From a virus, in IMG/VR virus record IMGVR_UViG_3300026493_000016, positions 1 through 64,000 of that record: DNA of 64,000 nt; one strand, written 5' to 3'. Position numbers and translations under genes: made by a program. The notes below the pieces were generated by a model, which saw only the letters and a list, made by a program, of their open reading frames with translations, ran no database searches and was not told where the DNA came from. Each line of letters starts with the position of its first letter. Within the stretch, counting starts at the first letter, position 1. Below, piece by piece: positions 7,579 through 47,860 of the stretch.

Positions 7579-8055
7579 ATGAAAGATACATTAGAAGAAA
7601 TGTTTGAATCGGTACAGGACTACGTAGAGACTAGTTTAATGGTCACTGTAGATAAGCATAAAGAAGGAATAACACCCTCATATATGGTTGGCAAGAATAG
7701 AGTTGCAGATTTAGATGGGTACCAAAAAACGAAGAACGACTATAAACATGTCTTGACACTTGTTATGACTAAGATGGCTGTAGATTATTACAACAAACCA
7801 CATTTCCACGACAAAGAGAGACAATCCATTAAGAATATTTTTTACAAGTACAATGTAGATTTAGAAAGCGCCATTGTTCGTGAAGGGTTAAGCTATACTA
7901 CAGATTTACTGGATGAGCTATTAGCAGAAATGATTGTGGAACTTCCATTCACATATGCGAATGCGCTGTTCAAAAACGATAAAGTATATGAAGAGTTCCT
8001 AGAAAGTATCCTAGATGCATACGAACCTTTCATCATTTTCTTAAATGCAGAGTAA
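7579..8055 (+). CDS. Hypothetical protein
   Basis: 158 aa, GGAGGA RBS. Confidence 0.75.
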   Translation: MKDTLEEMFESVQDYVETSLMVTVDKHKEGITPSYMVGKNRVADLDGYQKTKNDYKHVLTLVMTKMAVDYYNKPHFHDKERQSIKNIFYKYNVDLESAIVREGLSYTTDLLDELLAEMIVELPFTYANALFKNDKVYEEFLESILDAYEPFIIFLNAE

Positions 8056-8335
8056 AAAAGAGGTTCTAAGAAAAAGAAAGTATTTGTTTAGTATAGCGAA
8101 AACGAAGAATAGTTTTAATAAAGGGGATAAACGAGTACACACTCCTCGTATATGCTCATCTTGCGGGAGAGCTCTAGCTGAGTTCTCTCCTATTAAACAG
8201 AAGTACGTAACAGCAGTTACGCATATACATTGTAAGATAGAGTCCTGTGTATCTCTAAATGTTTGTAAGGACGTACAGAGTTGCTACAGGTACCTTAAAA
8301 AGAAAGGAGAACTAGAAGATGGCAATGGTGGATAA
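8045..8335 (+). CDS. Basic Cys-containing hypothetical protein
   Basis: CSSCG and later Cys residues; in terminase operon. Confidence 0.7.
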   Translation: MQSKKEVLRKRKYLFSIAKTKNSFNKGDKRVHTPRICSSCGRALAEFSPIKQKYVTAVTHIHCKIESCVSLNVCKDVQSCYRYLKKKGELEDGNGG

Positions 8336-8747
8336 CATTAAAAGAAACATGAAAACTAAGAACAATTTGTTTGATGCACAAGAGGAACTGCGTCAGAGCC
8401 TTAACTTAGGATTCTCGGAGTTGATGCTACAGTTTGCTAACCGTGTGCAGAATGGTGATATCAAAATAGATAACGTAGCAGATGCTGTACGAGCGTTCGG
8501 AGTGTTCAAAGAGTTGAATGGTATCGAGGATGTAATGGCTGGGCAGAACAAGTCAGGCGCTTTACCAGAGCTTAATATGCGTCAAGAGAAAGTTGTGGAT
8601 GATTTTGTTCGAGAAGGTACGTTAATCAAGTCTGATGAGGATGGAGAAGAAAGAATCGATATTGGTAGTTTACAAGATGACGATGTAGCTAAGATGATTC
8701 GTGATATGGACATCGCACAAAATACAGAGAATGAGGAGACGTTCTAA
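8319..8747 (+). CDS. Putative terminase small subunit
   Basis: 142 aa, helical, upstream of TerL as in Twort-like phages. Confidence 0.6.
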   Translation: MAMVDNIKRNMKTKNNLFDAQEELRQSLNLGFSELMLQFANRVQNGDIKIDNVADAVRAFGVFKELNGIEDVMAGQNKSGALPELNMRQEKVVDDFVREGTLIKSDEDGEERIDIGSLQDDDVAKMIRDMDIAQNTENEETF

Positions 8748-8938
8748 TGCAAAAGAGACCTTGGCAAATTGATATTATTGCGAACGACGATGTAACGCAG
8801 TACAAGTCCGTTAAAAAGTCTCGTGCCATGGGACTTAGTGAAATTAAACAAGAAGACTACAACGTGCTAGCTAAAGCGCGATGTGCAATATTTAACAATG
8901 TCATTATGGGAGTACCATACGATAGGAAGGAAGATTAG
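8747..8938 (+). CDS. 63-aa mini-protein duplicating TerL adenine-binding and Walker A motifs
   Basis: RPWQIDII...KSRAMGLSE versus TerL RPWQVDII...KSRQLGLSE; GAGGAG RBS, TAATG coupling to upstream gene. Confidence 0.7.
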   Translation: MQKRPWQIDIIANDDVTQYKSVKKSRAMGLSEIKQEDYNVLAKARCAIFNNVIMGVPYDRKED

Positions 8939-8940
8939 TA

Positions 8941-9485
8941 ATGTCAAACATCACAGGAGAACTAATACAACGAATAGCTAAACAAACTTTCGGAAGGACA
9001 GACCTGACAAAAGAAGAACTAACATATATACTAACAATGGTGAACTGTTCTTCTTATTTATTGAAGAATCATAGTGTTAAATCACACCCAATTACATTCC
9101 ATGTATCAGGTAAAGATGCGGCAAGGAGACAGGCTCACCGTCCTTGGCAGGTAGATATAATCAACGATACTCACCCTGATAAAGCTGTAATAAAATCTCG
9201 TCAGTTAGGTCTGTCAGAGGTTGGTGTAGGTGAGATGATGCACTTCGCGGACATTCACAGTTACGCAGGTGTTAAATGTCTATATACGTTCCCAACGAAC
9301 AGACAGATGAAAGACTTTGTATCTACACGTATAAATCCGTTACTAGCTTCCGGATACTACGGTTCTATCACGGACCCTTATGTAGATTCGCTAGATAAGA
9401 AGAAAATTAGAAATAGCTTCTTAATCTTCCGTTCTAGTTCCAAAGCAGCAGCGGTAGAGGGTATCGATATTGACTACCTATCCAT
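8941..9485 (+). CDS. terL: Terminase large subunit, exon 1
   Basis: RPWQ motif, Walker A KSRQLGLSE; ends ...DYLS-AT at the 5' splice site. Confidence 0.92.
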
Positions 9486-10580
9486 AAACTTACTTGTGGC
9501 TTGATGGGGCGACCCATCTCGAAAACTCCGTTAAACGGGGAAAAGCTAAGTCCGAGAGGATATGCCAATCCCGTACCAAAGAAGCCTAACGGCAGAAAAG
9601 GTCTAACGACTAAATTTCTAGGTAACTATCAAAATGGTGATAGTGAGAACTAGATAAGAAAACCTTGTATTTTAAGATAGTTGATGGTATTCTGTAGGAA
9701 AGGAGATGTTTGAAATGGCTAGACCTACAGACGAGTATTTAAATAGTAAAAGAAATAAATTCGCAGAAGACTTCATTAGGCAAGTCGAAGAGTTAGAAGG
9801 AACTAGGTACTCAGTCATTGGTGAGTATACTAAAGCTAAAACTAAAATAATGATGAGGCACAACGAGTGTGGTTTCGAATGGGGAGTTACACCGGACAAT
9901 TTCTTAAGAAGAAGTTCTAGATGTCCTGACTGTAGCGGTAACGCTAGATTAACGACAGAACAATTCAAAGAAAAGATGAAAAGAGAAATAGGTGAGGAAC
10001 ATAAGTTTCATGGTAGATTCTATAGCATGAGAAAGAAGATATTATGTGAACACATACCTTGCGGGAATAAATGGTATGTCATACCTTACTCTTTACAGGC
10101 AGGGGTTACTTGTCCAACGTGTAATGAATCTAACGGCGAGATGAAAGTTAGAAAAATACTAGAGGCTAACTTATTATCTTTTGAACCACAGAAATCATTC
10201 CATAAATGCCGAACAACTAAATCCCTAAACTTCGATTTCTACGTACCGTCTTTAAACTTATGTATTGAGTTTGATGGAATACAGCATTTCGAACCAGTAG
10301 ACTTCGCGTCTAAAGGTACTGCATGGGCGAAAGAACAGTTCAACGGTGTAGTTACAAGAGATTCTATTAAAAATGAATTCTGCGAATCTGAAGGAATTAA
10401 CTTATTAAGAGTTAACTATAAAATGAATGATGAAGAAATAAGAGAAGCCATCAATTCTACTATTTCTAAAATACAAGGAAGTAAAGCGGAGAGTCTCTAA
10501 CCTAAGCTAGAGATTATGATATAGTCTATCCCGTCTCCCTAGAGGAGAGTTAAAGTACTAGGAAACTAGCGGTGTAAGAG
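9486..10580 (+). mobile_element. Group I self-splicing intron in terL
   Basis: Removal restores Walker B DYLSM-DEYDR in frame (599-aa TerL); exon ends in U with P1 CCAU/GUGG; terminal G; P7 elements AACGACTA (~9605) and ATATAGTC (~10519). Confidence 0.9.
9706..10500 (+). CDS. Intron-encoded homing endonuclease (zinc-ribbon repeats + Vsr-like/DUF559-type nuclease)
   Basis: Two HxxCG.xW...CPxC repeats then FDFYVPSLNLCIEFDGIQHF...RDSIKNEFC...INLLRVNY. Confidence 0.85.
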   Translation: MFEMARPTDEYLNSKRNKFAEDFIRQVEELEGTRYSVIGEYTKAKTKIMMRHNECGFEWGVTPDNFLRRSSRCPDCSGNARLTTEQFKEKMKREIGEEHKFHGRFYSMRKKILCEHIPCGNKWYVIPYSLQAGVTCPTCNESNGEMKVRKILEANLLSFEPQKSFHKCRTTKSLNFDFYVPSLNLCIEFDGIQHFEPVDFASKGTAWAKEQFNGVVTRDSIKNEFCESEGINLLRVNYKMNDEEIREAINSTISKIQGSKAESL

Positions 10581-11835
10581 GGATGAGTATGACCGTGTAC
10601 CAGCTTCAGCTGAGCAGTCTGCTATCGAGTCGATGGCATCATCTCAGTTCAAGATTATGCGTAGATGGTCAACACCAACTGTTCCGAACTACGGTATCCA
10701 TAAATTGTTTGAAGAGTCAGACCAGCGTATTTATATGCACAAATGTGATGCGTGTAATTACACACAAGAAATAGACTACGATTTAAACGTAGAGTGTTTA
10801 GACCAGTCAGGCGTCGATACACTTGCAAAGACAGTTAGAGATGGTACGTATCGTTTTATCTGTCAGAAGTGTAAGGCTCCATTAGACAGATGGTATAATG
10901 GTCTATGGGTACCACGTTATGCAGACCGTTCATTAAACAACCAAGGTAAACGAGGATATCTAATCTCTCAATTAAATGCAGTATGGTTATCCGCCGATGA
11001 TATTAAACGTAAAGAAATAAACTCAGAGTCAAAGCAGCATTTCTACAACTACGTTTTAGGGTTCCCTTACCAAGATGTAGCGTTAGCAGTTCAGCCGGAC
11101 GATATACTAGGGCATAAGCGCGAGTACCTACCTAAGCCGCTTCACAATCGTGGAGACTACCGATTCATCTCTGTAGGTATTGACTGGGGTAACCGTCACT
11201 GGGTTACTGTACGGGGATTTAAAGATGACGGACGTATTGATTTAATCCGTATGTTCTCTATCGAGCGTGCTCGTGGCGTTGCTAATATCGAGGCAGACTT
11301 ATGGCAAGTCATCAACGAGATTGCACCATACCAGCCAGATATTATTTGTGCGGATATCGGTGACTCTGGTAACTATGTAGACAAATTAATCCAACATTTC
11401 GGAGAAGGTATTGCTTACGGTGTTAAAGTTAACCCTAACCCTCGTTCAACAGGACAAATTGTTCCGGTATGGTCAGAGAACAGAAATATGGTTACAGTGG
11501 ATAAGTTAACGCAGAATAAAAAGCATATTGCAGATATGAAGATGGGACGACTAGGATTCTATCAAGAAGAGGACCAGTTGTTAAAGTTGTATCTGGAACA
11601 TTGGCAAAACGTAGTTATCCGAGATGAACAAGATGAGAAAACAAAAGAAATGTATCAGGTAATCATGGATAAAGGTCCGGACCATTTCGCTCAATCGTCT
11701 GTATACTCAATGGTAGGAATGGAGCATGTGCTAGAACCTTATATTAAGAAGACATTCGAAAACGCGTTCGACTACACAGCATTAGACGTGATGGGTTCAT
11801 CGGCTAAACCTGACATATTTGAGAAAGGTTGGTAA
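10581..11835 (+). CDS. terL: Terminase large subunit, exon 2
   Basis: DEYDR Walker B, STPT coupling motif, Zn motif, nuclease VGIDWG and DHFAQ. Confidence 0.92.
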
Positions 11836-11906
11836 GTTCCGCTATATTAGTAAAGTCAGCAGGATACATGTAGTCTTTACTAATATAGATAAGGAGGTTA
11901 TATTCT

Positions 11907-13103
11907 ATGAATAAGCATGTGCGTAACGAAGTTTATTCAAACTTGTACTCTGAAGCAGAATCTACACAAAGCGGAGAATCAGGAAATTATTACACGAGAC
12001 CTGAGACAGATGAATTAGTAAGAAAAGCAGTAGCACCTAAGGTAGATAAAGCGTACGTAACAGATGCTATAAAAGATTTACCAACAAAAACGTTTGTTGA
12101 ACATGAGTTAGGTAAAAAAGCAGATAAAACTTATGTAGACGAAACTTTCGCCACAAAGAAAGAACTATATGATTGGGGACACCCTGAAGTCCCTCAAGGA
12201 GAGTCTTCTGAGGCGAATGTTAACACGCTAGATACTATAAAGAATGTCGGAAGGTATTCTCTAGCGTTTGATTATAAAGGAAACCCGCTACCTTCAGACG
12301 ACTATGCTTTCTTGCTTGTAACTAGAAAGGTTGACAACGGTGATATCCGTCAAGAGTACTCGCACATCAATGTGAACTTTGAAGCAGATACCTCTACCGT
12401 AATGTTTGCTTACCGTATGTATGACACTACAAAGCAAGAGTGGAGCGGTTGGGCGGTCATTGATTCTGTTTCTGGAGGAGACATTACAGAGACTCTTAAG
12501 AATTACTATACTAAGAAGCAAGCAGATGAAACTTTCTCAACTGTTCTCGCTCATGATGCTTTGGCTACAGCTATCACTGATATTTATAACCAAAAAGTAG
12601 GGTATGAGGAAATATACACTAGAGAGGAGTCTGACGCTAGATTCGCTCTTAAAGGTGAAATCGTGGAACCTGTACCAGCTAAGAGACTACAGTTAAATAT
12701 CGGGGACCGATTTAATAACGCATACGGAACTAGTAACTCTTATGCTACTCACGAAAACAACGAGGTATCTATTCATGTAGATGTAGCTAACGAGATAGCA
12801 GGAAGTGTGTTAGACGCTCAAGGCGAACATATAGAAACCATACTACAATCTATACTACTGTGTAGTTTAGAAAAAACATTTATGGATGAGTTAACTAGTA
12901 AAGGTAAGACACTCCAAGTCAAGAAAGTTTACATCCCGCATATGCTAGAATACCCTCAGGGTGATAACGCAGGGTACGCTTTTATGGGGATAACTACTGT
13001 AGAGGTAGACCAGAATGGACAAATATCTACAAAATCGCCTCTAGATATAAATAAAGTCCTATACTTCAGATTTGATATTGTTGCAGAAATTATAGATAAG
13101 TAA
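11907..13103 (+). CDS. Fibre-like virion protein with YT(K/R)xE(S/T)D repeats
   Basis: Repeats YTRPETDE, KADKTYVD, YTKKQADE, YTREESDARFALKGE typical of phage fibre shafts; late promoter upstream. Confidence 0.6.
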   Translation: MNKHVRNEVYSNLYSEAESTQSGESGNYYTRPETDELVRKAVAPKVDKAYVTDAIKDLPTKTFVEHELGKKADKTYVDETFATKKELYDWGHPEVPQGESSEANVNTLDTIKNVGRYSLAFDYKGNPLPSDDYAFLLVTRKVDNGDIRQEYSHINVNFEADTSTVMFAYRMYDTTKQEWSGWAVIDSVSGGDITETLKNYYTKKQADETFSTVLAHDALATAITDIYNQKVGYEEIYTREESDARFALKGEIVEPVPAKRLQLNIGDRFNNAYGTSNSYATHENNEVSIHVDVANEIAGSVLDAQGEHIETILQSILLCSLEKTFMDELTSKGKTLQVKKVYIPHMLEYPQGDNAGYAFMGITTVEVDQNGQISTKSPLDINKVLYFRFDIVAEIIDK

Positions 13104-46860: not shown

Positions 46861-47453
46861 AGATTATTATTGATGAAAGTAAACTCAATGCTGTCTTCAT
46901 TTTGTAATCGTTCTTGAATGCTCATAACTTCCTCGAATCCAATTTCTGTACACTGACTAGGCGAGTCGTCATGTCTAACAACAAACACCTCACTTTCAGC
47001 GTTCACAACGTCGATTCGCCCTGTAATATTTCTAATAACCTTGTAATTCATGTCTTTAGCTATTACAGTAATCAATATGCGCTTTTCATCAATATTGGTA
47101 AGGTATTTAAATAACGCTGTTTCTGTAATGTCAAGAGCATGTTTAAACAAATCAGCGCGTAAATCATATATAGAACCATTCTCAAGGAATACAATTTGTT
47201 CAACATTCTGATATTGAATGTTTGTTATTTCATCAAACGCGCTTTTAACATCGAAAGATTGTAGAAACGAATTTGCTATTCTACCATCAACAGATTTTAG
47301 GGGCTTGTCTACATGCTGTACATCTCTATACCAGAAACGGAACTGCTTACCTTTCTGTATACGTTGGAATGATTTAATTAAATCACTAACGAATAAAATC
47401 TTATCCGTTTCCTCTGCATTTGTTAAAGTTACCTCTGACATTATAACGACCAC
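46842..47453 (-). CDS. Tandem Sm/YolD-like domain protein
   Basis: Two repeats: VDGRIANS..IQYQNVEQI and ITGRIDVV..IGFEEVMSI. Confidence 0.7.
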   Translation of the reverse strand: MVVIMSEVTLTNAEETDKILFVSDLIKSFQRIQKGKQFRFWYRDVQHVDKPLKSVDGRIANSFLQSFDVKSAFDEITNIQYQNVEQIVFLENGSIYDLRADLFKHALDITETALFKYLTNIDEKRILITVIAKDMNYKVIRNITGRIDVVNAESEVFVVRHDDSPSQCTEIGFEEVMSIQERLQNEDSIEFTFINNNLWRSTK

Positions 47454-47860
47454 CCTTTATAATAGTTTGTTTTACCTAACATTTCTACCAAACTGTTAAA
47501 CTCTAAATCTTTGAACATTTTTGCTAGTTCACTAGGATTAGCACCGTATACCATGTTACACCATAATGTTTCTTTTGTCAACCACTCTAGATAATTGTTT
47601 AAATGCTCCTGCTCGTCTGCTATAATTCTAGAAGTACCTACACCGCTGTACGCTGCTAAAACCCTAACCTCAGCATCGCAGTAATCATAAGATAGTAAAC
47701 TATCACCGTTGTAAACGACGTCTTGTATCGAGCCGTAAAACCCTGCATACCGTTCCGCATAATCACAAGTTTTCCCATACATTTCGGTAATAGCTCCAGC
47801 AGGTAAACCGCCACCCATTAAAAGACTTGTCTCAGTATCGAAAGCAATCATTTGTGTCAT
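47441..47860 (-). CDS. Motif-mosaic protein (Pol I exonuclease, RecA, Pol A motif A/B and Walker-like fragments)
   Basis: AFDTET; GGGLPAGAITEMYG; LLSYDYCDAEVRVLAAYSG; IIADE; VYGA; AAGGAG RBS. Confidence 0.75.
   Translation of the reverse strand: MTQMIAFDTETSLLMGGGLPAGAITEMYGKTCDYAERYAGFYGSIQDVVYNGDSLLSYDYCDAEVRVLAAYSGVGTSRIIADEQEHLNNYLEWLTKETLWCNMVYGANPSELAKMFKDLEFNSLVEMLGKTNYYKGWSL

Follow-up and report, generated by a model that had tools for sequence, protein, structure and literature searches.

Gene order at the terminase locus

The window analyzed here is a stretch of 64,000 nucleotides from a virus record of 145.9 kb (IMG/VR record IMGVR_UViG_3300026493_000016), and the region described is ~89% DNA-identical to Wphvirus phages such as Hakuna (Herelleviridae, Bastillevirinae). 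On the plus strand the locus comprises, in order, terS, a small ORF (here the mini-ORF), terL exon 1, an intervening sequence with a homing-endonuclease ORF, and terL exon 2. The terS gene (8319-8747; 142 residues, phrog_1063) ends in a TAA codon (8745-8747) that overlaps the ATG of the mini-ORF (8747-8938; 63 residues, a member of phrog_4486), giving a TAATG junction at 8745-8749. A Shine-Dalgarno sequence, GAGGAG, was read directly at 8733-8738, 8 nt 5′ of this ATG. The mini-ORF stop codon, TAG (8936-8938), lies 2 nt 5′ of the terL ATG at 8941, and the preliminary description was correct in placing the ORF between an overlapping terS stop and the start of terL.

Exon 1 of terL (8941-9485) encodes TerL residues 1-182, and exon 2 (10581-11835) encodes residues 182-599. 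The intervening sequence (9486-10580; 1095 nt) has U at position -1 and G as its last base, and lies between codon positions 545 and 546 of the Hakuna gene. Its 3′ end resembles that of the self-splicing SIOphi terL introns. The ORF within it (9706-10500, plus strand; phrog_559) encodes a VSR-like homing endonuclease with a CapR-like zinc-finger region. Rfam searches of positions 8000-12000, RF00028 included, detected nothing, the terL intron included. On the 5′ side of terS (window 7579-8335) lie two conserved genes of unknown function (phrog_2298/Pfam DUF7398 and phrog_1321), in the same order in all relatives examined.

An intact copy of the mini-ORF occupies the same position in 74 Bacillus phage records (tblastn, 37-71% identity), the carriers belonging to Wphvirus, Bastillevirus and part of Bequatrovirus. 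Homologous mini-ORFs beside terL are thus present in three genera of Herelleviridae and not in a single genome. Annotated copies, placed between the two terminase genes, are found in Hakuna, Belinda, Bastille, BPS13, AvesoBmore, and W.Ph. (gp4); these are 71-73 residues long and always start on the terS stop. The TAATG start is present in the window, at each of the 16 related loci examined, and likewise in W.Ph. gp4, and a good Shine-Dalgarno sequence precedes the start across the conserved copies of the three genera. The window protein matches phrog_4486 over its full length (E 3e-33; residues 1-63 aligned to positions 1-63 of a 72-position profile) and also matches phrog_22344. A profile search of 1.8 billion representative proteins returned only five clusters, all from this phage group; four of the five contain small family proteins, and the named members are from Wphvirus, Bastillevirus, Troll, and W.Ph. 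phages. The mini-ORF is a genuine small gene, confined to Bastillevirinae with hosts in the Bacillus cereus group.

RefSeq often labels the relatives "terminase large subunit" (Hakuna gp70, Bastille gp266, AvesoBmore gp60). The label stems from a short motif match and is wrong, since these proteins of 63-73 residues have no Walker B motif, catalytic glutamate, or nuclease domain; the present assignment corrects an annotation error repeated in dozens of RefSeq phage genomes. A literature search found no published study of the family, which is present in databases only, under this mistaken label.

Two TerL-like blocks in a 63-residue protein

The preliminary description reported that the ORF resembles the ATP-binding motifs of TerL, and this resemblance is far beyond chance. 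Residues 3-33 of the mini protein align with TerL residues 66-94 with 17 of 31 positions identical (single BLASTP comparison, E 8e-9), and a profile–profile comparison with TerL gives a probability of 94.6% (E 7e-8), the hhalign alignment showing the N-terminal block only. TerL is the sole second match to the mini protein in the phage's own genome (E 5e-5). This N-block (Lys3-Glu32; 8753-8842), homologous to TerL 66-93, contains an RPWQ adenine/Q motif and a KSRxxGLS Walker-A-like strand-loop; the corresponding stretch of terL (TerL 67-93) is at 9139-9219 in exon 1. Comparison of alleles defines a hypervariable loop within the block, at codons 11-21 (8777-8809).

The sequence that follows had been described as unrelated to TerL. 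This was mistaken: the part after GLSE matches TerL 322/324-345 (..KRKE..FYNYVLGFPY). An HMM of the mini family matches TerL twice, at 66-98 and at ~333-351 in the coordinates of the stop-to-stop ORF, the latter equivalent to TerL ~324-345. The C-block (Ile33-Tyr58; 8843-8920) is homologous to TerL ~319-345 (SADxxKRKE..FYNYVLGFPY), the counterpart of which is encoded at 10990-11070 in exon 2. When Smith–Waterman scores of individual alleles were compared with those of 2000 shuffles, the C-block of AvesoBmore scored z 7.2 (0 of 2000 shuffles as high), that of Hakuna z 4.3 (p 0.0025), and that of the window z 3.7 (p 0.0055), all three matching TerL at one and the same site; in this test the alleles of Bastille and BPS13 were not significant alone. 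The block is incomplete in the BPS13-type allele, which has lost VLGxPY. In phages of the BPS13/SalinJah type (loci L004 and L013), a deletion of ~17-19 nt took this end of the mini-ORF together with the ATG of terL, and BPS13-type terL is annotated with a TTG start inside the 3′ end of the mini-ORF, a 41-nt overlap.

By alignment, the mini protein is composed of TerL ~67-93, a variable linker of 5-6 residues, and TerL ~319-345, joined head to tail. The first segment holds the Q motif and Walker-A-like strand-loop of TerL, and the second is the end of its ATPase domain. Absent are TerL 1-65, 94-318 (including Walker B), and 346-599 (the nuclease domain). DNA identity between the N-block and the terL stretch is only ~70%, which indicates an old duplication. 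Recent gene conversion from terL is excluded by this low identity together with conserved residues specific to the mini proteins (KKSRAMGLS against IKSRQLGLS in TerL). The two-block anatomy, the exact point of insertion, and the link to intron hot spots are new in this analysis.

Insertion point, selection, and origin

In relatives without a mini-ORF, the terS stop directly overlaps or abuts the terL start. This arrangement was seen at over 40 loci of more distant relatives, where the gap is -1 to 8 nt, and also in Enterococcus phage EfV12-phi1 and Brochothrix phage ADU4. All carriers, which are phages of the B. cereus group, fall in one clade with 100% support; three Bequatrovirus loci (Spock-like) inside this clade have no mini-ORF, and the tree requires two state changes. 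The loci of AvesoBmore and a Spock-like phage are 89-91% identical on both flanks and differ by 208 nt, the indel beginning right after the shared ATG and being bounded by AATG..AATG. As placed by these comparisons, the insert (~175-215 nt; ~305 nt in W.Ph.) sits exactly behind the ancestral terL start codon, and the mini-ORF has thereby captured the original ribosome-binding site, start codon, and terS overlap of terL. GAGGAG at 8733-8738 is, by the presence of the same motif before terL in Spock-like loci, identified as the ancestral terL ribosome-binding site. At the 3′ end of the insert, terL received a new Shine-Dalgarno sequence and ATG. The new Shine-Dalgarno sequence, the purine-rich AGGAAGGAAG (8924-8933, read directly), codes for RKED in the tail of the mini-ORF; the tail after the C-block is this sequence translated, which probably explains its conserved EED type.

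A functionless peptide would fit part of this picture. The mini-ORF could be a recombination scar kept open only as a translational relay from terS to terL, as it occupies the place where terS and terL ancestrally overlapped, holds the Shine-Dalgarno sequence of terL in its final codons, has a conserved tail that is simply that sequence translated, and is dispensed with in the Spock-like loci. This is improbable, however. The end of the mini-ORF relative to terL ranges from a 41-nt overlap to the 89-nt gap of W.Ph., where coupling to terL is accordingly not conserved, and the start of terL, counted from that of the mini-ORF, is offset by 3n+2 in the window and Hakuna but by 3n+1 in Bastille, BPS13, and AvesoBmore. 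The variable end and the genus-dependent offset argue for a role at the protein level rather than a pure relay. Further against the relay, amino acids are selected in both halves of the protein while synonymous sites change freely (pooled pN/pS 0.14 over three independent pairs, binomial p 1.5e-14; N-terminal half 0.17, C-terminal half 0.07), and 11 residues (Arg4, Pro5, Trp6, Ile8, Val22, Lys24, Ser25, Arg26, Ser31, Val40, Ala42) are invariant across alleles that are 28-47% identical. Two closer relations to terL were also rejected. Fusion to TerL by frameshifting is ruled out by the differing offsets between genera and by the W.Ph. gap, and a present-day terL exon is disfavored by the lack of a conserved frame relation to terL and of any Rfam RNA family match in 8000-12000.

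The reading frame is intact in all 17 loci aligned. The mini-ORF is under purifying selection in both halves and is not a pseudogene, so that codon-level conservation, proposed earlier as a check, is borne out. The earlier impression that the ORF looks expressed rather than decayed likewise gains support from its presence in three genera, its start on the terS stop, its good Shine-Dalgarno sequence, and its pN/pS. Its amino acids nevertheless change far faster than those of TerS or TerL. In close pairs, dN/dS is 0.08-0.26 for the mini-ORF against 0.00-0.07 for terS and terL. Among Wphvirus phages TerS is 95-100% and TerL 98% identical, and mini alleles of the Hakuna and BPS13 types are ~30% identical (dN 0.77, dS 2.9) in phages whose TerS and TerL are 95% and 98% identical and whose flanks have dS of 0.3-0.8. 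Alleles have been shuffled between lineages and are shared across genera. The window allele is itself a mosaic, with a BPS13/Bastille-like loop in an otherwise Hakuna-like gene: codons 11-21 have 70-76% nucleotide identity to BPS13 and Bastille and only 24% to Hakuna, and the flanks of the loop are Hakuna-like (78-94%).

Mapping of terL exons in relatives by tblastn (Hakuna numbering) placed insertions at codons 72/73 (L060, ADU4, Remus), 91/92 (SIOphi, L063, Staphylococcus phage Remus), 118/119 and 121/122, 176-184 (the window itself and others), 214-216, 292/293 (SIOphi), 318/319 (L063, ADU4), 342/343 (EfV12-phi1), and 385/386. The L063 insert at 318/319 matches the Rfam family Intron_gpI (E 1e-6, below the gathering score); of the L063 introns only this second one was detected by Rfam, the first being missed. 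The terL of Remus (L069, 1-3800) is split into five or more exons; one is a micro-exon of 19 codons (TerL 73-91), bounded by the introns at 72/73 and 91/92. In L061, an IMG/VR phage record of 159,492 bp, terL switches frame at codon 98 (2793-2795), either a frameshift or a sequencing error.

The mini protein joins TerL 93/94 to 319, an internal junction only 1-3 codons away from the intron sites 91/92 and 318/319, which flank a single exon in L063; the C-block ends 3 codons past the 342/343 site. The chance of the two junction/intron coincidences is ~0.01, a rough estimate for some ten sites along 599 codons, with a match allowed at up to 3 codons. A common cause could also underlie the coincidence, as introns and mini protein both favor the most conserved motifs.

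In relatives, introns are inserted in the DNA that corresponds to each of the two blocks, and the terL of the window is itself interrupted by an intron with a homing endonuclease. The insert could alternatively act as DNA: a diverged ectopic version of terL homing sites (those at 72/73 and 342/343 fall within it) serving as decoy target or repair template. This is very improbable. Identity to terL of ~70% over ~80 bp is too low for homologous repair, selection acts on codons with synonymous sites changing freely and not on DNA, and none of the 17 aligned mini-ORF copies contains an intron.

The terL transcript of SIOphi self-splices, and its dominant product skips an internal exon (PMC11878797); exon skipping in Twort orf142 is cited in the same study. 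The SIOphi introns at 91/92 and 292/293 (L068, 5354-8291) have near-identical ends (5′ GGGT/TAA..; 3′ ..GAGACGGTAxAxTTG/T), which accounts for the published skipping. The skip changes the reading frame, and its product would be a stub, TerL 1-91, that stops at the Walker-A motif. An exact exon skip at the RNA level is a doubtful origin for the mini-ORF, because splice phases disallow an in-frame skip: a direct join of 91/92 to 318/319 would be out of frame, and the N-block extends 1-3 codons beyond the splice site.

An origin by stepwise loss from a copy of terL is slightly favored over other routes taken together. In the proposed sequence of events, the 5′ part of terL was duplicated, and the duplicate then lost the segment 92/94-318 between two intron sites, either by recombination of two paralogous group I introns or because the homing endonucleases of both introns cut at both sites. 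The remnant would subsequently have been trimmed and kept as a small protein. The earlier suggestion of a repair scar from homing-endonuclease cleavage gains indirect support from the proximity of the junction to 91/92 and 318/319.

Putative function and comparison with known systems

The mini protein is not an ATPase. A Pfam search gave no match, GpA_ATPase included; the Walker-A-like motif KSRAMGLS is KSRSEQIS in the W.Ph. allele, with loss of the P-loop glycine; and no confident fold is predicted (AlphaFold2 of the protein alone: mean pLDDT 55.6, pTM 0.18), a result that allows a disordered peptide. It has neither a conserved glycine-rich Walker A loop nor a confident fold that could hold a nucleotide, as expected of P-loop NTP-binding proteins. 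As for a large terminase, TerL 94-318 with the DIDYLSxDEYD motif is absent and no complete ASCE ATPase domain is formed, and the protein ends at the equivalent of TerL 345, before the RNase-H-like nuclease domain. A complex prediction with TerL 1-360, TerS, and the mini protein scored 0.02 (mark 0.32). AlphaFold2 modeling of full-length TerL, from an alignment of only 15 rows, gave a pLDDT below 50 for the ATPase domain. A PDB sequence search with the TerL profile found no match, and an ESM Atlas search no usable match. A ribosome-arrest leader peptide was considered and rejected, as the RPW at residues 4-6 is too near the N-terminus and the acidic tail is a translated Shine-Dalgarno sequence.

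Taken as a whole, the balance tips a little toward the reading in which this real, selected small gene, built from two TerL fragments, has an intron-linked origin and a product that mimics TerL. The peptide would be made in step with TerS, and would be a largely disordered mimic of TerL, not an enzyme, acting in trans by occupying a binding site meant for the two TerL blocks. The likeliest target would be the terminase or packaging assembly (TerS, a neighboring TerL, or the portal), where the peptide could tune when or how TerL engages. This putative packaging function is the first choice over a host-sensor target, if a tentative one, and position in the terminase operon favors it.

The pattern of divergence favors, on the contrary, a partner outside the phage: mini alleles that are ~30% identical beside near-invariant TerS and TerL would fit such a partner better than a terminase partner. 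The preliminary description raised the possibility of a decoy or inhibitor of terminase-sensing immunity. On that reading a disordered peptide would occupy host sensors that recognize TerL (Avs1-3, Upx-like) without triggering them, presenting the first strand and Walker-A loop of TerL and a late segment of its ATPase domain as the decoy surface. The low-confidence AlphaFold2 model would allow such a peptide. The gene is restricted to phages of one host group, and its change ahead of its neighbors (dS 2.9 vs 0.3-0.8), hypervariable loop, and cross-genus alleles are typical signatures of an arms race. Published work keeps the idea alive: the ATPase domain of TerL is reported to suffice for triggering Avs2 and Upx, and Upx has been modeled as threading the unfolded strands β1, 4, 5, and 6 by β-augmentation, possibly on nascent TerL (PMC13601566). 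It is nonetheless rather unlikely, as recognition by Avs needs a large folded surface beyond the reach of a 63-residue peptide. In either case, a selected, fast-evolving gene of one host group within the terminase operon is a candidate terminase regulator or counter-measure against terminase sensing.

It is tempting to speculate that the mini protein belongs to a wider class of phage "motif-concatenate" peptides that blunt host pattern-recognition sensors gripping conserved blocks, though this is a long shot. Such peptides would be short and disordered, assembled from the best-conserved parts of essential, intron-ridden enzymes of the phage itself, and would arise by deletions driven by introns or homing endonucleases; Upx-like binding of unfolded TerL strands would be an example of the sensor. 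Elsewhere in the window, orf139 (47441-47860, minus strand; phrog_5612, function unknown) resembles enzymes of the same phage in three short stretches, located at catalytic motifs. Its residues 4-14 match residues 217-227 of a PolA-like protein (Exo I; shuffle z 2.9), residues 50-73 match PolA-like 738-761 (motif A; z 4.5), and residues 15-29 match residues 57-71 of a 415-residue RecA-like ORF (z 4.8); blastp within the proteome gave weak E-values of 0.6 and 2.4. From these matches, orf139 may be a second such mini protein of this genome.

Among known proteins, the closest to the mini protein are its phrog_4486 and phrog_22344 relatives, which belong to the same family, match over the full length, are likewise located between terS and terL, and begin on the terS stop as well. 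The functional large terminase (GpA_ATPase/GpA_nuclease, phrog_675) shares RPWQ, KSRxxGLS, and ..YNYVLGxPY with it by descent. However, ~90% of that protein is missing from the mini protein, which, with no Pfam match, cannot be a packaging motor. Protein vs.8 of phage T4, an ATPase-like paralog of the T4 terminase ATPase domain (PMC13601566), is similarly a lineage-restricted extra phage protein derived from the TerL ATPase domain, with an unknown role. In contrast to the mini protein, with its two short blocks and no confident fold, vs.8 is a whole folded ATPase-like domain with both Walker A and Walker B (PMC13601566).

The exon-skipped terL product of SIOphi has an internal deletion that starts from the same place as that of the mini protein, the Walker-A codon Leu91, its piece ending in KSRQLGL. 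In SIOphi this is a frame-shifting RNA event in the real terL, whereas in the mini-ORF the deletion is fixed in DNA and resides in a separate, extra ORF, whose product also lacks TerL 1-65 and everything after residue 345. The right-hand edges differ as well, that of the mini protein lying at 318/319, as in L063 and ADU4, and the second SIOphi intron lying at 292/293. The mini-ORF is a clear example of a new gene formed from pieces of an essential one, and its breakpoints at group I intron hot spots would tie the traffic of introns and homing endonucleases, and the exon skipping of SIOphi, to the origin of phage genes.
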